Shown: positions 1,038 through 18,233, counted from the stretch's first letter. The stretch: DNA of 25,968 bases from Acidimicrobiia bacterium (GCA_041609395.1 JBFIQU010000001.1:1-25968); one strand, 5' to 3'. The notes: generated by a model not told the origin, from the letters alone. Made by a program: numbers and translations.

Positions 1038-2491
1038 CTCCGCCGTCCCCCGATGAGAAGGCCGAGGTCGTCGACGGTGGCCGTGGACCTGTCGATGATC
1101 TCGAGGATCTGCCCGGAGAAGAACACGGCGATCCGATCCGAGTACTGCAGCAACTCGTCGAGGTCGGCCGACGCGAATGCAATAGCCGTGCCGTCGTCGC
1201 GGCGCGCCAGCAGCTGTTCCCACACCCAGTTGGCCGAGGCGATGTCGAGCCCCCGGGTCGGGTGCTCCATCAGCAGGAGCTCGAGTTGCGGTCGCAACAT
1301 GGCGAGCAGCAGACGCTGCTGGTTGCCGCCGGAGAGCGCTTCGGCCATCGAGCCCGGCACTCCCTTGATCGAGTAGTGCTCGATGCTCGATGCCGCCTGC
1401 GACTCGGCCTCGTCCCAATCGACGAAGAACGGCTGATCGTCACCGGCGAGGAAGAAGTGCTCGGTGATGGTCAGTCCCCGGACCAAACCCTCCTCGAGGC
1501 GACCGGCCGGGAGATACCGCACTCCGGCGTCGAGGAAGTGCCGGTAGCTCTTGCCTCCCAGCGACCGGCCCCCGATCCGCAGTACGCCCGACAGCGGCGC
1601 ATCCAGCCCGGCGCAGGCTCGTAGCAGCACCTGCTGGCCGCTGCCTTCGAGGCCGGCCAGTCCCAACACTTCCCCTGCGGCCACCTCGAGCGATATCCCG
1701 CTCATCTCCAGCAACCGGTCCCGGAGAGTGAGGTCGACGCACTCGAGTGCGGGTTCACCCAGCGGAACGTCGCTCCTCGCTCCGATCTCGATCGGTTGCC
1801 CGAACATCAGGGTGACCAGCTCGGCCACGGGGCACGGCAGCTCCCGATCGCCGACGGTCTTGCCCGCACGCATCACGGTGACGCGCTCGCACAGCTCTTC
1901 GACCTCTTCCAGCTTGTGCGAGACGAACACCACACTCATGCCGTGCCCGGCCAGCTCACGCAATGTGGCGAACAGCTTTTCCCGCTGAGTCGCGGAGATC
2001 CCGGTGGTGGGCTCGTCCAGGATCAGCAGCTTGACGCCCAGCCACAGCAGACGCACGATCTCGAGCTGCTGCCGCTCTCCAACGGTGAGCGTTCGCACGG
2101 GTGCTTCCGGGTCGAACGAGAACCCGAACTGTCCGGCCAGGTCGTTCAGTTCGCGGCGGGCGGCGGAGCGGTTGAGGCGACCACCGGCGGCCAGCAGGAA
2201 GTTGTCGAGAACGCTCATTGGCAGGAACACCAGCGGGTCCTGGTGCAACATGCCGATGCCGTGGGCGATGGCGTCTTGCGGAGTGGCGATGGTCACCGGC
2301 CTCCCGTCGACGAGGATCTCCCCACCGTCGGCCTGCTGATACCCGGACAGGATCTTCATGAGGGTCGACTTGCCGGCGCCGTTCTCGCCGAGGAGACCGT
2401 GCAGGGTCCCGGAGGCGACGGTGAGGTCGACCCCGTCGTTGGCGCGCACCGGCCCGAAGTGCTTCCGAATGCCCCGCAGCTCCACGCCCAT
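1034..2491 (-). CDS. ABC transporter ATP-binding protein with two NBDs (sugar/nucleoside family)
   Basis: Walker A GENGAGKST, LILDEPT, SHKL H-loop, second-domain LSGGNQQ signature and EHPTRGLD. Confidence 0.95.
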   Translation of the reverse strand: MGVELRGIRKHFGPVRANDGVDLTVASGTLHGLLGENGAGKSTLMKILSGYQQADGGEILVDGRPVTIATPQDAIAHGIGMLHQDPLVFLPMSVLDNFLLAAGGRLNRSAARRELNDLAGQFGFSFDPEAPVRTLTVGERQQLEIVRLLWLGVKLLILDEPTTGISATQREKLFATLRELAGHGMSVVFVSHKLEEVEELCERVTVMRAGKTVGDRELPCPVAELVTLMFGQPIEIGARSDVPLGEPALECVDLTLRDRLLEMSGISLEVAAGEVLGLAGLEGSGQQVLLRACAGLDAPLSGVLRIGGRSLGGKSYRHFLDAGVRYLPAGRLEEGLVRGLTITEHFFLAGDDQPFFVDWDEAESQAASSIEHYSIKGVPGSMAEALSGGNQQRLLLAMLRPQLELLLMEHPTRGLDIASANWVWEQLLARRDDGTAIAFASADLDELLQYSDRIAVFFSGQILEIIDRSTATVDDLGLLIGGRRR

Positions 2492-3910: not shown

Positions 3911-6799
3911 GTGGGCGCGGGGCGGGCTCCTCCGATACGCTCCGCATGGAAATCATGGGAGGCGGCGATCGCGACCCGCGACACCGATGTCGGAACCAAC
4001 CGCGAAACGATCCACTGCGCGCTGCTCTTTGCGGACATGGAGGGCTCCACGCAGCTCCTGAAACGAATCGGCCCTGCATATCCGTCGGTCCTGGAGCGCT
4101 ACCAGGAACTCATCGGCAGCATCGTCACCGGGTGCGACGGAACCACGGTGACGACGGAAGGTGACGGATACTTCGCCACACTGCCATCGTCGATCGCCGC
4201 CGTCCGGGCCGCCCTCTCGATTGCTGCTGCGCTCCGGGATGAACCGTGGCCCCTCGACGAGACCGTTCGGGCCCGAATCGGCATCCACTCCGGCGACATC
4301 GTGCCCTCGCCCGCCGGGCCCATCGGCCTCGACATCCATCGGGCGGCCCGGCTGGGAGCCGCCGGTCACGGGGGTCAGATCCTTGCAACCGGGGCCGTCG
4401 TGGACGAGTGCCGGGTCCTCGGTGACGTCGAGTTCGTGGACCTCGGCATGCACCGGTTCAAGGATCTCGACATCCCCGAACACGTCTACCAGGTCGTCCC
4501 CGACGGTACGACGGTGTCGTTTCCGCCGATCCGCTCCCTGCCGGCAGAACACACGAACTTGCCGCTCCAAACCACCAGCTTCGTCGGGAGGGACGCCGAC
4601 CTCGAATCCGTGATTCCGCTGCTCACCGATACCCGGTTGCTGACCCTGACGGGACCCGGCGGCGCCGGCAAGACCAGACTCGCCGTCCAGGCCGCCTCCC
4701 AGGTGTTGACCGACTATCCCGACGGCGTATGGCTCGTCGAGCTCGCACCCGTCTCCGACCCCGACCTCGTTGCGGCGCGCGTTGCCGCCGCCGCAGGTGC
4801 GGATACCGGGGGAGGAGACGCAACGGCGGCCCTCGTCGACCATCTACGGGAGCGCAGCGTGCTGCTGCTGCTGGACAACTGCGAGCATCTGGTCTCGGCC
4901 GCAGCCGCGCTGGCCAACACTCTGTTGACAACCTGCCGCCGGGTTCGAGTCGTCGCGACGAGCCGAATCCCGCTGCAGGTCCCCGGTGAGCAGCTGTGGG
5001 AGGTCGGGCCGATCGCCGATCCCGAGGACGCGGCCCGGCTGTTCGTCGAGCGAGTGCGCGGCTCCGTTCCCGGGTTCGCGTTCGACGCCGCCTCGCTGAG
5101 TTCGGTGCGGAGGATCTGCGATCGTCTCGACAGGCTTCCCCTTGCCATCGAACTCGCCGCGGTGCGGGTCCGCACCCTCGGTCTCGCCGACCTCGAGAAC
5201 CGGCTCGAGGATCGCTTTTCGCTTCTCACCGGGGGCGCCGTAACGGACGTGGTCCACCACCGCACCCTGCAGGCGACGGTGGATTGGAGCTACGACCTCC
5301 TAACCGAGGTGGAGCAGCGGTGCCTGTCCCGGCTCGCCGTGTTCCGGGGTCCGTTCGACCTCAAGGCCGCAGAGGACGTGTGCACCGGCCCCGGTGTGGA
5401 AGCCCGGCTGATTCTGGACGCCGTCGACCACCTGGTGATGGTCTCGCTGGTGGCGGTACAGAGCGGCGGGCGCTTCCGGCTGCTGGAGACGATCCGGGAC
5501 TACGCCATGTCCCGCCTCCAGGACTCCGGAGACGTCGCGGCGGCTGCGCAGCGGCATTTCGACCACTTTCGCCTCCTGGCCGGTGACGGGGGCGACGGGA
5601 TGTCGGGCGAGGAGCTCGCCGACTGGCTGACATCCCTCGCCCGCGACCACGACAACTTCTCGGCCGCCGTCCAGTTCGCCCTCGAGTCTGGGGACCGGCC
5701 CGCAGCGGTGGGGCTGACCGGCGCCCTGGGCAGGTACTGGTACCGGCGGGGGCACCTGGCCGAGGGGCTCACCTTGCTGCAGCGAGCTCTCGCAGGCTGG
5801 CACGATCCGCCGGAACTGGACACGGCGCGAGCATTGCGCTTCGCCGGCGGCCTTGCCGCCGAGGCGGGAGAGCTCGACCTGGCAGAGTCGTTCCTCGAGC
5901 GAGAAGAGGTCGTGTCCCGCAAGATCGGCCGGCCGCTGCTGGTCGCGCGTTCGTTGAACGCCGCCGCCGGCGTGGCGTGGCGCCGGCTCCAGCTTCGCCG
6001 CGCCGCATCTCTGTACGAGGAGGCGCTGGCGCTCCCAACGATCGACGCCGATCCTTTTTCGTTCCGGCTTCTGACGAACCTGACGACGGTCCTTCTCGCC
6101 GCCGGGGACGTGGACGGGGCTCGCGTCGCGCGCCGCCGCCAGGACGAAGCAGGACGCCGTTTCGAGCCGCCGGACGGCGGACCCATCGTGGATCACACCC
6201 GCGGCGTCATGGCCTACGCCGAAGGCCGGCTCGACGATTCGATCGCGGCCCTGGAGCGGGCCCGGACCCGGCTCGAGAGCTCATCCTTCGCTCCGATGGT
6301 GGCCAAAATTGACCAGGATCTCGCCACGACGCACCTGGCGGCGGGCAACATCCGATCGGCCTTCGAGGCGGCCGAGCGGTCGCATCGCGAGTACTACGAC
6401 CAGGGGGCCCGCGCCAACACCGCCCGATCACTCGCGCTCATGGCAACCGCCCATCACCGCCTCGGCAACACACCGGCCGCCGGCGCCGAGATCCGGGAGG
6501 CCCTCGAGCTGGCAATCCGGGGCAGCCACACCGAGGAGATCATCGTTGCTTCGCTCTACCTGGGCGAGATCGCAGCCGACCGAATGCCGGCCTCCGTCGC
6601 CGCCGTGGTCGCGTTCATCGACCAGGCGCTCAGCAGTGTGGATTTCGTGCTGGCCCCGGACGACGCCACCGGCCTGGATCGCCTCCGGGAGGCCGCCGGC
6701 ACGCCGCGGGCTCCGGTTCCCTCGCTCTCGGACCTCCTCCACCTGGCACGGCAGATCGACGAGGCCGCTCATGCAGGGCAAGCGACAGCAAGCCCCTAA
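3911..6799 (+). CDS. Class III adenylate/guanylate cyclase domain + STAND (NB-ARC-like) ATPase + TPR-like repeats; start uncertain
   Basis: Cyclase motifs LFADMEGST, TEGDGYF, RIGIHSG and GLDIHRAARL; NLP linker; Walker A GPGGAGKT; Walker B LLLLDNCEH; LDRLPLAIELAA; FRLLETIRDY; helical C-terminus with no LuxR HTH. Confidence 0.88.
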   Translation: MGAGRAPPIRSAWKSWEAAIATRDTDVGTNRETIHCALLFADMEGSTQLLKRIGPAYPSVLERYQELIGSIVTGCDGTTVTTEGDGYFATLPSSIAAVRAALSIAAALRDEPWPLDETVRARIGIHSGDIVPSPAGPIGLDIHRAARLGAAGHGGQILATGAVVDECRVLGDVEFVDLGMHRFKDLDIPEHVYQVVPDGTTVSFPPIRSLPAEHTNLPLQTTSFVGRDADLESVIPLLTDTRLLTLTGPGGAGKTRLAVQAASQVLTDYPDGVWLVELAPVSDPDLVAARVAAAAGADTGGGDATAALVDHLRERSVLLLLDNCEHLVSAAAALANTLLTTCRRVRVVATSRIPLQVPGEQLWEVGPIADPEDAARLFVERVRGSVPGFAFDAASLSSVRRICDRLDRLPLAIELAAVRVRTLGLADLENRLEDRFSLLTGGAVTDVVHHRTLQATVDWSYDLLTEVEQRCLSRLAVFRGPFDLKAAEDVCTGPGVEARLILDAVDHLVMVSLVAVQSGGRFRLLETIRDYAMSRLQDSGDVAAAAQRHFDHFRLLAGDGGDGMSGEELADWLTSLARDHDNFSAAVQFALESGDRPAAVGLTGALGRYWYRRGHLAEGLTLLQRALAGWHDPPELDTARALRFAGGLAAEAGELDLAESFLEREEVVSRKIGRPLLVARSLNAAAGVAWRRLQLRRAASLYEEALALPTIDADPFSFRLLTNLTTVLLAAGDVDGARVARRRQDEAGRRFEPPDGGPIVDHTRGVMAYAEGRLDDSIAALERARTRLESSSFAPMVAKIDQDLATTHLAAGNIRSAFEAAERSHREYYDQGARANTARSLALMATAHHRLGNTPAAGAEIREALELAIRGSHTEEIIVASLYLGEIAADRMPASVAAVVAFIDQALSSVDFVLAPDDATGLDRLREAAGTPRAPVPSLSDLLHLARQIDEAAHAGQATASP

Positions 6800-14304: not shown

Positions 14305-16044
14305 TCAGCCACGACGACGGGCGACCCAGGACATGAAGTCGGCGACGGGCCAGGTATTGGCGATCTGACGCCGCTCGATCCACGCCCGCTGCGCGTGGCC
14401 GACGCCCCAGGTCACCCGGCGGAAGTCGTCGCTGTGGTGGGCGTCGGTGTCGATGACGAAGACGATGTTGCGCTCCCGCGCCCGCACCAGCACGTCGTGC
14501 GACGCGTCCAGGCGTTCGAGAGCGCCGTTGATCTCGAGGGCACAGCCCGTCGCTTCGGCGGCGTCGAGAACCGCATCGACGTCGAACTCGATCCCCGGCC
14601 GCCGTCCCAGCATCCTGCCCGACAGGTGCCCGATGGCCCCCACGAACGGATTGTGCATGGCGGTGATGAGCCGTTCGGTCTGGTGCGCGGCGGGAAGATC
14701 GAAGTGGGAGTGCACACTGGCGATCGACCAGTCCAGACCGGCGAGCGTGTCGGGGTCGTAGTCCACGCTGCCATCCGGCGCGATGTTGAGCTCCGATCCC
14801 TGCAGGATCCGCAGTTCGGGATGGCGACCCTGAAGGCGGTCGATGCGTTGTCGCTGCCTGATGAGCTGCTCGCGGCTGATGCCGTTGATGGCCAGGTTCT
14901 CACCGTGGTCGGTGATGGCGATGTACTCCAACCCCCGCTCCGCAGCCGCCGCCACCATCTTCTCCAGGCTCATCCGACCGTCTCCCGACAGCGACGTGTG
15001 CACGTGGAGATCGCCCTTGATATCGGCCTCGGTGACCAGGTCGGGAAGCGTGCCGGCGGCGGCAGCCTCGATCTCACCGGCGTCCTCCCGTAGCGGCGGT
15101 GGAATGAACTCGAGATCGAGGGCTGCGTAGATCTCGTGTTCCGTGGCCGAGGCGACGACGTCACCGCTCTCGCTCTCTTCGAGCGCATACTCGTTGAGCA
15201 ACCAGCCCCGATCCATGGCGAGCTGCCGGAGCTTGATGTTGTGAGCTTTCGACCCTGTGAAGTAGAGCGTCGCCGCTCCGAACGACGCCGGCTCGACGAC
15301 GCGCAGGTCCACCTGGAGACCTTCCCGGGTGAGGATTGCAGCCTTGGTGTCGCCACGAGCGACGACCTCGTGAACGAGCCCGAGACCGACGAAGCGGTCC
15401 ATGACCGGACCGGCGTCGCCGGCGGCGACCACGACGTCGACATCACCGATGGTCTCGAGCATCCGGCGCAGGCTCCCGCAGTACTGCACGGCGGTCACCC
15501 CGGGAACCGCGCCGACGGCGTCCACCACCCGGGCCGCCACGCTCATCGCGGCCGCCGCCGGAGTTCTGCGGTCCTTGCCGTGCATCCCCAGACGTTCGAT
15601 GGCTTTGCCGATCTTCTCCTCGGTCTTGGCGCCGAGGCCCGGCAGGTCGCGCAGCTGCTCTCTTTGGATGGCGTCCCGCAGGCCGTCGAGATCCTCGATG
15701 CCGAGCCGGTCGCGCAACAACAGCAAGGTCTTGGGACCAAGGCCCGGGATTCGGGTGAGTTCCACAAATGGCGGCGGGTACGACGCGCGGAGAGCTTCGA
15801 GCTTCTGCATGGAGCCGGTCGTCACGAACTCCACGATCTTGTCCGCGGTGCTCTTGCCGATGCCCTTCACTGCCACCAGGTCGGCGTGACTCATGGTCGC
15901 GACGTCGCGATGCAGGTCGGCGACCGACTGACGGGCCGCTTCGTAGGCGCGTACCCGGAACGACTGCGCCGATTGGTCCTCGAGCTTGGTCAGGACGATC
16001 AGTTCGTCGAGCGCCGCTACGACGTCCCGATTGGTGACTCCCAC
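14305..16044 (-). CDS. polX: DNA polymerase X / PHP 3'-5' exonuclease
   Basis: HhH motifs GIGKSTA and GLGPKT, GSLRR, intact GDVD and VDLR aspartates, YFTGSKAHN, and PHP ligands DLHVHT, TDH, GSE, SVH, IGH and DTDAH. Confidence 0.95.
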   Translation of the reverse strand: MGVTNRDVVAALDELIVLTKLEDQSAQSFRVRAYEAARQSVADLHRDVATMSHADLVAVKGIGKSTADKIVEFVTTGSMQKLEALRASYPPPFVELTRIPGLGPKTLLLLRDRLGIEDLDGLRDAIQREQLRDLPGLGAKTEEKIGKAIERLGMHGKDRRTPAAAAMSVAARVVDAVGAVPGVTAVQYCGSLRRMLETIGDVDVVVAAGDAGPVMDRFVGLGLVHEVVARGDTKAAILTREGLQVDLRVVEPASFGAATLYFTGSKAHNIKLRQLAMDRGWLLNEYALEESESGDVVASATEHEIYAALDLEFIPPPLREDAGEIEAAAAGTLPDLVTEADIKGDLHVHTSLSGDGRMSLEKMVAAAAERGLEYIAITDHGENLAINGISREQLIRQRQRIDRLQGRHPELRILQGSELNIAPDGSVDYDPDTLAGLDWSIASVHSHFDLPAAHQTERLITAMHNPFVGAIGHLSGRMLGRRPGIEFDVDAVLDAAEATGCALEINGALERLDASHDVLVRARERNIVFVIDTDAHHSDDFRRVTWGVGHAQRAWIERRQIANTWPVADFMSWVARRRG

Positions 16045-16053
16045 GCCCCGGCG

Positions 16054-16422
16054 TCAGCCGAGACGGCGTCGGGTGCGGTTTCTCGTCCTGATGATGCTGC
16101 GGAACACGAGCATGGCCACGAGGACGAGGAGCTGTCCGCCGAGAATCACCCGGGTGAGGTCGATGGCCGGCTCCCACCTGACCCCGTCGTCGCTGAGGAC
16201 GAGAGCGCCGACCGGGCGGGCCACCAGTCCGTAGCCGCCGCCCGACCCGGCCGCACCGGACCCGTCGTCACCTCGTCCGCCCCCGGCACCGCCGGAGATC
16301 CGGGCGGCTGGGATGACGATGGTGCCGTTCCGCTCGACGGGATCGCCGAACACGATCTTGCCGGTGATTGGATTGTCGCGAACGTTGAGGAACTGGCTGA
16401 GGTCGACGTCGTCGAGCTGCAT
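16054..16422 (-). CDS. YtfJ/GerW-like small protein with a C-terminal TM helix
   Basis: VFGDPVERNGTIVIPAARISGGAGGG...GSGGGYG..ARPVGALVL....VRWEP pattern. Starts 2 nt after the WS/DGAT stop. Confidence 0.85.
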   Translation of the reverse strand: MQLDDVDLSQFLNVRDNPITGKIVFGDPVERNGTIVIPAARISGGAGGGRGDDGSGAAGSGGGYGLVARPVGALVLSDDGVRWEPAIDLTRVILGGQLLVLVAMLVFRSIIRTRNRTRRRLG

Positions 16423-16424
16423 CG

Positions 16425-18110
16425 CTACCTCTCTTTCTGGCTGGATGTGGTTCTCGATCGCGGAGCACGCGTGCTCCCGCTCTTCTTGGCCGCCGTGCCG
16501 GTCTTCCCGGCGCTCTTCGAGGTTGCGGTGCGGGAACGGGCCGGGGGCTTCGCCGTCGCGGCGCCGGTCTTCTTGGAGGTCGCGGATGCGGCCTTTGCCT
16601 TCGACGACCTTTGCCCGGACGTCTTCGTCGTTGCCGCTCGCGACTTCGTCGCCGGCCGCTTCGCCGTTCGGCGGCGAGGCGTGGCATCGGGGTCACGACC
16701 GGCCGCGGCGGCATGCAACTCGGCGAGTGCGTCCCGGATACATGCGCTGAAGCGCTCGAGATCCGGGACCAGGTCGTAGTCCGCGGCCAGGCCCCAGGCG
16801 ATAGAGCCCTCATAGCTGAACAGGGCGACCCCGATCCCGTGGTCCATCCACAGCGGGACCATCGGGTACTGGACGACGAGCTTCGATCCGAGCAGATAGA
16901 GCGGAACCTGCGGTCCCGGGACGTTGGTGACCGTCATGTTGAACGGATGCACTGCATTCCAGGCAAGACGTACACCGAGAGAGAGCAGGGTCAACGGCAT
17001 CCACGACGCCGACTGGGTGAGGACCGTGGCTCCCAGCGCCGCATCGTCGTCCTTGAGACGGGCCGTGACCTCACGGACAGCCTCGTACCGCGTGGCGGGG
17101 TCTGCCTCCCGTACCGGGAGGTCGACGAGCCACATGGCAACCTGGTTGCCTCCCGACGACTCCATCTCCTGCGACCGCACGCTTACCGGGGCCATGACCC
17201 GATACTCGAGGGCCTCGACGTCGACTCCGCGTTGCTGCATGAACGACCGCACCGCGCCCGCAACGGTGGCGAGAACGACGTCGTTCACCGTGCCGCCCAT
17301 GTGGTTCTTCACGTACTTCACCTCGTCGAGCGAGGTGACGAGCCAGTCGAACCGCCGGTGCGGGCTGAGATCCTTGTTGACCGGCGTCGCCGAGCTGCGA
17401 CGGAACCAACCCGAACGAGCCGCCTGCAGCGCCGCCTGGACCCGGTGACGTAGGTCGGCCCGGGCCTGTTCCCCGCTTCCGCCGAAGGCGTCCACGATGC
17501 GCATGGCGGCGCGCAACGGCATCGTGGCGAACTCGAACGTCTCGTCGACGATCAGCTCGACGTCGCTCGGAACCGGACGCGGCTCCCACGAGGGGGATTC
17601 TTCGATCTCCTCGACAGGCCACAGCGACAGCATCACCTTGAGGAGATCGACCCCGGCCATACCGTCGATCATGGAGTGGTGCACTTTGACGACGATCGCG
17701 AAGCGCTCGTCGGCGAGACCCTCCACCACCCACAGCTCCCACAACGGACGCGACCGATCGAGTTGCTGGGCGAAGACCCGGGCGGCGAGTTGCTTCAGCT
17801 CGGCCTCGGTGCCGGGCCGGGGAAGGCTGGTGTGGCGGACGTGATAGTCGAGGTTGAAGTGGCGATCGTCGACCCACACCGGGCTGCCGGTCAGCGGGAT
17901 CTGGGCCAACCGCTGCCGATAGCGCGGGATGTACTGCAGCTTGGAACCGACGAAGGCGCGAATGCGCTCGATGTCGATTCCGCCATCCTCACGAAGCAAC
18001 GGCCCGGCCTCGTAGATCTGGATCGCAGCGATGTGCATGTACGAGTTGGGCCGCTCGAGCGCGAGAAACGAACTGTCGAGAAATGAGAGGCGTTCGAAGG
18101 TCTTGGCCAC
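16425..18110 (-). CDS. Wax ester synthase / diacylglycerol acyltransferase (WS/DGAT) with a basic low-complexity C-terminal tail
   Basis: RLSFLDSSFL, catalytic HHSMIDG, LDRSRPLWE, GTVNDVVLA, TNVPGP. Start is GTG 18110 with GGAG 5 nt upstream. Confidence 0.93.
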   Translation of the reverse strand: MAKTFERLSFLDSSFLALERPNSYMHIAAIQIYEAGPLLREDGGIDIERIRAFVGSKLQYIPRYRQRLAQIPLTGSPVWVDDRHFNLDYHVRHTSLPRPGTEAELKQLAARVFAQQLDRSRPLWELWVVEGLADERFAIVVKVHHSMIDGMAGVDLLKVMLSLWPVEEIEESPSWEPRPVPSDVELIVDETFEFATMPLRAAMRIVDAFGGSGEQARADLRHRVQAALQAARSGWFRRSSATPVNKDLSPHRRFDWLVTSLDEVKYVKNHMGGTVNDVVLATVAGAVRSFMQQRGVDVEALEYRVMAPVSVRSQEMESSGGNQVAMWLVDLPVREADPATRYEAVREVTARLKDDDAALGATVLTQSASWMPLTLLSLGVRLAWNAVHPFNMTVTNVPGPQVPLYLLGSKLVVQYPMVPLWMDHGIGVALFSYEGSIAWGLAADYDLVPDLERFSACIRDALAELHAAAAGRDPDATPRRRTAKRPATKSRAATTKTSGQRSSKAKAASATSKKTGAATAKPPARSRTATSKSAGKTGTAAKKSGSTRAPRSRTTSSQKER

Positions 18111-18233
18111 GGGATCTCCGGATCGATTCCCCTCGAGGATACCCATTGCAGCGCACGGCAATCGAAGCCGGCCCTATCAGGGTCGTTGTTCCTCCGCTAC
18201 CGTTGGTTCGAGAAGGAGAAGGGAAAGCGGGAC

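Follow-up and report, generated by a model that had tools for sequence, protein, structure and literature searches.

The stretch of DNA considered here (the window, 25,968 nt; GCA_041609395.1 JBFIQU010000001.1:1-25968) forms contig 1 of a metagenome-assembled genome, 1.99 Mb in size and 70% complete, from an uncultured marine Acidimicrobiia bacterium. It carries on its minus strand a gene for a WS/DGAT (wax ester synthase/diacylglycerol acyltransferase), an enzyme of storage-lipid synthesis, that continues past its last core helix into a polycationic, low-complexity C-terminal tail. The catalytic body (WS_DGAT_cat plus WS_DGAT_C, with a GTG start) occupies 16683..18110, the 85-residue tail (residues 494-578 when counted from the first TTG) occupies 16428..16682 with a net charge of +24, and only 2 nt separate the TAG stop at 16425..16427 from the start codon of the following gene (ATG, 16422). 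The gene is single-copy in the genome assembly, and the named close homologues of its product are all labelled 'Acidimicrobiia bacterium'. Public sequencing runs that contain the window's DNA are marine and sediment metagenomes, with no RNA runs listed among them.

The gene was analysed as one minus-strand open reading frame counted from its first TTG (16425..18161), which lies at 18161, 17 codons before the GTG at 18110. Both the N-termini of 120 homologues and a public gene call (P0003, 561 aa) place the start at the GTG, so the protein is 561 residues long and not 578. Pfam recognizes WS_DGAT_cat (PF03007) at residues 25-296 with 216.3 bits (cut-off 23.6) and WS_DGAT_C (PF06974) at residues 338-482 with 101.6 bits (cut-off 20.7), and the NCBIfam model TIGR02946, whose cut-off is 310, gives 415 bits. 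The catalytic HHxxxDG motif is intact as HHSMIDG (17661..17681, minus strand; residues 161-167 in the 578-residue numbering). By these sequence matches the protein is a bona fide WS/DGAT, with predicted acyl-CoA:alcohol or acyl-CoA:diacylglycerol acyltransferase activity, and it shares with AtfA of Acinetobacter, the Marinobacter WS/DGAT and Tgs1 the two-domain architecture, the HHxxxDG motif and a C-terminal amphipathic helix. Those enzymes, of ~450-475 residues, terminate shortly beyond it. In the window's protein the last WS_DGAT_C helix (residues 465-485; 16707..16769, minus strand) is amphipathic, with a hydrophobic moment (muH) of ~0.5, and the tail begins directly after it. This helix occupies the position of the C-terminal helix of Mycobacterium tuberculosis Tgs1, which has been proposed as a droplet-binding element, and Tgs enzymes are present in lipid-inclusion proteomes (PMC10699116).

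An earlier reading of the window, made from the sequence alone (the sequence-only reading), had described an 85-residue tail with 13 Lys, 12 Arg and a single acidic residue, ending just before the next gene and for that reason unlike run-through. A recount finds exactly 85 codons after the last helix and the same residue numbers, the full composition being 17 A, 16 T, 14 S, 13 K, 12 R, 5 P, 5 G, 2 Q and 1 E; the position of the stop, 2 nt from the next start codon, is likewise as described. Lys makes up 15.3% of the tail against 1.8% genome-wide (495 long open reading frames), an 8.5-fold enrichment (P for at least 13 Lys in 85 residues, 5e-9), and hydrophobic residues, 33% in the same genome-wide set, number zero of 85 (P = 2e-15). 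The hydrophobic moment is at most 0.22 throughout, leaving no amphipathic segment.

The nucleotide sequence bears out the coding character of the tail. GC content at third codon positions (GC3) hardly differs between tail (0.82) and core (0.83), whereas GC content at first positions (GC1) falls from 0.69 in the core to 0.46, opposite to the bias of this 67% GC genome, indicating that A-rich first positions for Lys, Thr and Ser are kept despite genomic GC pressure. A second minus-strand frame across the tail is also open, and it would encode the Arg/Pro/Gly string that unselected GC-rich DNA gives. Tandem Repeats Finder found no DNA tandem repeats in the tail, so it is not a recent slippage expansion. 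Portions of the tail also occur, with 0-2 differences, in contigs assembled from public metagenome runs of three studies, so it is not an assembly artefact, and the public gene call P0003 contains it. The variants inside the tail in these contigs, one synonymous and one S515P, are too few for a selection test. The tail is real, in-frame coding sequence and not run-through, and its composition is under selection.

The description of the tail as histone H1-like held for charge and low complexity and failed for family membership. Pfam assigned the isolated tail to no family at E<=1, including HC2 (PF07382), and the 85 residues contain no PAKKA or S/TPKK(A) repeats. To judge from sequence, the likeness to the histone H1/Hc2 type (PF07382; NF038052) is one of charge, low complexity and disorder only. 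These profile and motif results place the protein outside both the H1/Hc2 family and that of MLDS, the droplet protein of Rhodococcus discussed below. The tail is an intrinsically disordered polycation that runs straight on from the final helix, itself amphipathic, of a complete WS/DGAT.

To map the distribution of such tails, everything beyond the final conserved helix was measured for each of the 120 best homologues (47-69% identity). In 61 of them the appendage is shorter than 15 residues, 19 have a short net-basic tail, mostly of 19-37 residues, 20 have a long basic tail of 61-187 residues that combines K/R with A/T/S/P, and 10 have a distinct, folded-looking tail of 72-83 residues. The only tails that touch the HC2 profile are the AKKP-repeat tails of some relatives, with 27-34 bits, below the cut-off of 40. 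Long basic tails were absent from 29 orthologous WS/DGAT loci drawn from species-representative genomes of the same order: about 22 have fewer than 10 residues after the helix, two have 13-14, two have a 25-residue basic tail, one has a 42-residue acidic tail ending in a conserved short motif, and the folded tail occurs in three genomes, all belonging to the family of the window's genome. The wider family (151 representatives, 31-53% identity) includes 37 net-basic extensions, seven of them long.

On a maximum-likelihood tree built from the 120 core domains with the tails left out, the state 'long basic' requires at least 8 changes, whether gains or losses. Long tails are kept across a 13-member clade and Lys-rich tails of 26-28 residues across a 12-member clade, although even the nearest relatives, at 67% core identity, have tails that cannot be aligned, tail length varies between 0 and 187 residues, and presence is patchy. 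To the question of conservation, which the sequence-only reading had raised, the answer is mixed: most orthologues are without a tail (61 of the 120; about 22 of the 29 loci with fewer than 10 residues), and the tails that are present have a non-random composition, K/R plus A/T/S/P, and persist within clades. The tails are labile in sequence and length yet recurrent and retained, a combination typical of disordered regions that have a function. A separate 19-member WS/DGAT clade has a motif in its C-terminal extensions, (K/R)(K/R)RPP(L/M)G(T/S), carried for example by P0050, P0058, P0095 and P0103 and also by P0034, P0060, P0077, P0108, P0117 and L016. Some members have it at their extreme end, and in others it precedes or follows a long Lys-rich stretch. 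It resembles a docking motif, and the window's tail does not contain it.

The window's own clade is distinguished by a second kind of appendage. All 14 proteins of this clade (SH-aLRT support 98) have a C-terminal extension and the clade's sister has none; four of the 14 carry basic disordered tails of 23-122 residues and the other ten a folded tail of 72-83 residues. This folded appendage, found on WS/DGATs of the window's own family (P0006-P0016; L004, L005, L006) and encoded at the 3' end of the gene, has a domain of ~50-55 residues (residues 487-539 in P0006), with S, R-W and D among its invariant residues. Modelled by AlphaFold2 from 7 sequences, it has a predicted local distance difference test score (pLDDT) of 81, rising to ~90 over the last 50 residues, and shows a beta-helix-helix-beta-beta-helix arrangement. 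Exhaustive structural alignment (VIA-align) gave top root-mean-square deviations (rmsd) of 1.9-2.5 over 51-54 residues. The best match was the DNA-binding domain of pSK1 Par (Z 7.5, rmsd 1.9 over 51/53 residues), followed by the chromosome-anchoring domain of RacA (Z 6.4) and by the P1 ParA N-domain and a MerR-type regulator (both Z 6.0), with the IF-2 N-domain, GlnR/TnrA, other MerR proteins and excisionases also among the top ranks. Foldseek returned nothing at E<=0.001 against the PDB, where all matches were at 0.3 or above for this small domain, and only IF-2 N-domains at E ~0.07-0.3 against AFDB/Swiss-Prot, and all Pfam helix-turn-helix (HTH) matches were below cut-off. Given the weak Foldseek values, Z-scores below 8 and a net charge of about -4 to +2, we read the folded tail as a putative winged helix of the MerR type, whose fold serves mostly to hold DNA, and not as a demonstrated DNA binder. 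Two unrelated appendages at the same position within one clade, each of a kind that typically binds DNA, would, if the model holds, have the look of a swappable tether.

The closest worked precedent for a basic tail in a lipid-droplet system is MLDS (RHA1_ro02104) of Rhodococcus jostii, which has an N-terminal droplet-targeting part and C-terminal PAKKA motifs and whose gene forms an operon with that of the XRE regulator MLDSR, the two overlapping slightly (PMC5504291). The Lys-rich C-terminus of MLDS binds DNA non-specifically, K-to-E changes abolish this binding, and DNA is brought to artificial droplets when the C-terminus is fused to a droplet protein unrelated to MLDS (PMC5504291). Relatives of MLDS are TadA of R. 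opacus and HbhA of mycobacteria (PMC5504291; PMC10699116). A six-frame scan of the window's assembly for Lys-containing polybasic low-complexity stretches returned two credible long ones, the WS/DGAT tail and P0123 on contig 154. P0123 (189 aa; L002, 4676-5245, plus strand) consists of a conserved N-terminal part of ~95 residues, predicted to be all-helical, and a (TAKKAPAKKATTTRKP)n tail of TAKKAPAKK-type repeats. Its start overlaps by ATGA the end of a 120-aa gene for an XRE-type HTH protein (4317-4679, plus strand), so that, by sequence and gene order, the pair has the layout of the Rhodococcus mldsr-mlds lipid-droplet/DNA-tether operon.

The XRE/P0123 operon is conserved in 35 of 37 Acidimicrobiia loci, the two exceptions lying at contig ends, and in 30 of the 37 the P0123-family tail has at least 8 Lys. 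Across the window's genome and 60 relatives, 43 encode both the P0123 family and a WS/DGAT, nine neither, five only the WS/DGAT and four only P0123; one whole family (0/5) is without both, and matched losses occur within another. Homology of P0123 to MLDS or HbhA could not be demonstrated, with Pfam and NCBIfam yielding only weak DUF6779 and apolipoprotein matches, a profile search of PDB sequences giving nothing relevant, and the ESM Atlas returning only low-score leads, including a phasin cluster at 0.78. The AlphaFold2 model of its N-terminal part is all-helical, with a pLDDT of 57, too low for a fold search.

The window's tail resembles the MLDS C-terminus as a Lys-rich, low-complexity C-terminus on a lipid-related protein, that of MLDS being droplet-associated, DNA-binding and modular, and its composition is compatible with a DNA-binding C-terminus of that type. 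MLDS, however, is a small structural protein with an N-terminal helical droplet-binding domain, whereas the carrier here is a synthase with the WS/DGAT fold. The tail is also without PAKKA repeats, is rich in Ser, Thr and Arg, has no sequence homology to MLDS, and belongs to a genome with a separate MLDS-like protein, P0123. The window's protein by this comparison stands outside the MLDS/TadA/HbhA family, and its tail may act as the MLDS C-terminus does. Basic tails also serve storage granules elsewhere: the H1-like tails of PhaF in Pseudomonas putida (polyhydroxyalkanoate, PHA; PMC7590123) and AlgP in P. aeruginosa (polyphosphate; PMC9239181) join granule to nucleoid and help to space or segregate the granules. 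Unlike the WS/DGAT, those systems concern other polymers in Gammaproteobacteria, and their AAKP-type repeats are carried by a phasin or by AlgP instead of by the synthesizing enzyme. Within Actinobacteria, the Lys-rich PAKKA tails of mycobacterial Ku and HupB/Hlp modulate DNA binding (PMC3553676; PMC5504291). Like the window's tail they are low-complexity basic C-termini on a folded domain, variably present among close relatives, and they add non-specific DNA affinity, but to carriers that already bind DNA.

HupB of Actinomycetes typically carries a Lys-rich C-terminal tail, and the HU homologue of the window's genome (~97 residues; contig 20, L072, about 1500-1794, plus strand) is plain, without one. 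Literature searches turned up no description of polybasic tails on enzymes of the WS/DGAT family, in keeping with the sequence-only reading's view that none is known to have been characterized, and the PAKKA protein list in the supplement of the MLDS paper (PMC5504291) contains no acyltransferase. The joining of granules to the nucleoid by basic tails is known from PhaF, AlgP and MLDS.

We hypothesize, tentatively and with slightly less than even confidence, that the tail is an electrostatic tether of the WS/DGAT and its droplets to DNA and the nucleoid. With the enzyme on the membrane or a nascent droplet, the tail would project from that surface: placed directly after the putative droplet-binding amphipathic helix, it would leave the enzyme at the lipid surface as a disordered chain of charge +24. 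It would then bind chromosomal DNA, the largest polyanion in reach, without sequence specificity, as the Lys-rich C-terminus of MLDS does, and in this way would keep both the droplets and the synthesis of neutral lipid at the nucleoid. The droplet location of the enzyme, DNA as the ligand and a role in droplet positioning, inheritance or DNA protection are what we infer by analogy. Nucleoid anchoring is plausible given the MLDS-like operon in the genome and the winged-helix domain that replaces the tail in sister lineages. A wider version is possible but doubtful: droplets in several lineages might be nucleated and held on the chromosome by an exchangeable C-terminal tether borne by the synthase, alongside the XRE/MLDS-like operon, the module perhaps being disordered and polycationic in some lineages and, in lineages sister to these, a small domain of winged-helix fold. 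Tuning of the tail by Ser/Thr phosphorylation or Lys acetylation, also proposed from the sequence, is pure speculation.

Several observations weigh against the tether. First, the Ser/Thr- and Arg-rich tail has neither a PAKKA motif nor an HC2 match, which leaves charge as the sole basis of the analogy with MLDS and H1. Second, the PAKKA droplet protein JLP of R. jostii bound DNA in vitro and did not recruit it to droplets (PMC5504291). Third, half of the close homologues and most same-order species representatives are without a tail, so it is dispensable for the family; on sequence comparison the tail appears clearly non-essential to WS/DGATs. Fourth, the folded winged helix has a net charge of about -4 to +2, unusual in a non-specific DNA binder, in addition to its Z-scores below 8. 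Finally, the Fisher P of 6e-5 for co-occurrence of WS/DGAT and P0123 overstates the case, because the genomes are related and several are incomplete.

The same charge could instead serve at the lipid surface itself. In this rather unlikely alternative, the main rival of the tether, the tail is an anionic-lipid anchor that would tighten the enzyme's attachment to the cytoplasmic membrane or the droplet's phospholipid monolayer by binding the head groups of phosphatidylglycerol, cardiolipin or phosphatidylinositol, and the long tails would have grown out of a short basic patch close to the membrane. WS/DGATs work at lipid surfaces, short basic extensions of 15-45 residues, often Arg-rich, are widespread after the last helix (37 of 151 representatives), and the helix before the tail is amphipathic (muH ~0.5), its Tgs1 equivalent having been proposed to insert into the droplet monolayer (PMC10699116). 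The lengths of 85 to 190 residues nevertheless far exceed those of known polybasic membrane anchors, and the tail offers no hydrophobic or aromatic residue and no amphipathic segment. Anchoring to lipid would also leave unexplained both the winged-helix domain at the same site in sister lineages and the fact that the genome's only other such tail sits on an MLDS-like protein, whose model, MLDS, binds DNA through that part.

Less probable again is that the tail has no specific ligand, being either an entropic or electrostatic bristle that keeps an aggregation-prone interfacial enzyme in solution or prevents droplet coalescence, or a tolerated, fast-evolving, low-complexity appendage of little function. 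The patchy presence, the spread of lengths from 0 to 187 and the failure of tails to align between relatives with 67% core identity are what such a view predicts. It does not account for a composition selected against mutational bias (Lys 15% against 1.8%, GC1 0.46 against 0.69) or for whole clades that retain their tails, and at 67% genomic GC one would expect a neutral appendage to resemble the alternative frame and be rich in Arg, Ala, Gly and Pro, not in Lys, Thr and Ser.

We consider it improbable, further down the scale, that the tail tethers the enzyme to another polyanion, polyphosphate granules or RNA, instead of DNA. Polyanions cannot be told apart from charge alone, the H1-like AlgP organizes Pseudomonas polyphosphate granules (PMC9239181), and basic disordered tails of bacterial RNA helicases bind RNA (PMC11260450); yet neither the window nor the relatives' loci show a link to polyphosphate or RNA metabolism, and in the nearest worked precedent for a droplet protein the ligand is DNA. 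An artefact, by which a frameshift, lost stop or mis-assembly made non-coding DNA look like a tail, is effectively refuted: high-GC DNA is often stop-free in several frames, as another minus-strand frame is here, but GC3 is as in the core, the Lys/Thr/Ser-rich frame is opposite to random GC-rich DNA, comparable tails occur on dozens of independent homologues, contigs of three studies match the window, and the tail is part of gene call P0003.

Storage granules are held on the nucleoid through PhaF/PhaM in the case of PHA and through AlgP in the case of polyphosphate. To our knowledge, MLDS of Rhodococcus is essentially the only studied link between bacterial lipid droplets and DNA. If the tether to DNA is correct, a synthase that builds in its own tether would be a simple droplet-positioning mechanism, recurrent in uncultured marine and sediment Acidimicrobiia, and would extend to neutral lipids, at the level of the enzyme, the principle that granules ride on the nucleoid. 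If the tail is an anionic-lipid anchor instead, it would still be a new interfacial targeting device for the WS/DGAT family. In biotechnology, such tails could alter droplet number or size when WS/DGATs are expressed in other hosts.

The genes around the WS/DGAT give little further guidance. Directly downstream on the minus strand is a YtfJ/GerW-like gene (16054..16422, 122 aa, with a C-terminal hydrophobic stretch), which is probably co-transcribed with the WS/DGAT. Its Shine-Dalgarno-like sequence, AAAGAGAGG (16428..16436, minus strand), falls within the last three codons of the tail (K-E-R). Third in the row is a PolX-PHP polymerase gene (14305-16044, minus strand), the gaps being 2 nt between WS/DGAT and the YtfJ-like gene and 9 nt between the latter and PolX-PHP. 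No YtfJ-like gene was found beside the WS/DGAT in the 29 relatives' loci, and the arrangement seems to be lineage-specific. At the locus of a long-tailed homologue (L070, 4989-11537) the WS/DGAT instead lies between rluD, which follows ileS, a dksA-like gene and lspA, and dnaE. In the window's genome rluD/lspA and dnaE are on other contigs, and rluD is upstream of the WS/DGAT in only 1 of the 29 relatives' loci. Since both the YtfJ-like and the rluD-WS/DGAT-dnaE contexts are barely shared, no conserved neighbourhood explains the tail.

Among the relatives there are, in addition, proteins of ~930-985 residues (P0133, P0147, P0155, P0179, P0181, P0184, P0187, P0216 and P0221) whose C-terminal half, beginning near residue 480, matches the WS/DGAT core. 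They show two matched stretches and are seemingly tandem or fused WS/DGAT-like proteins.

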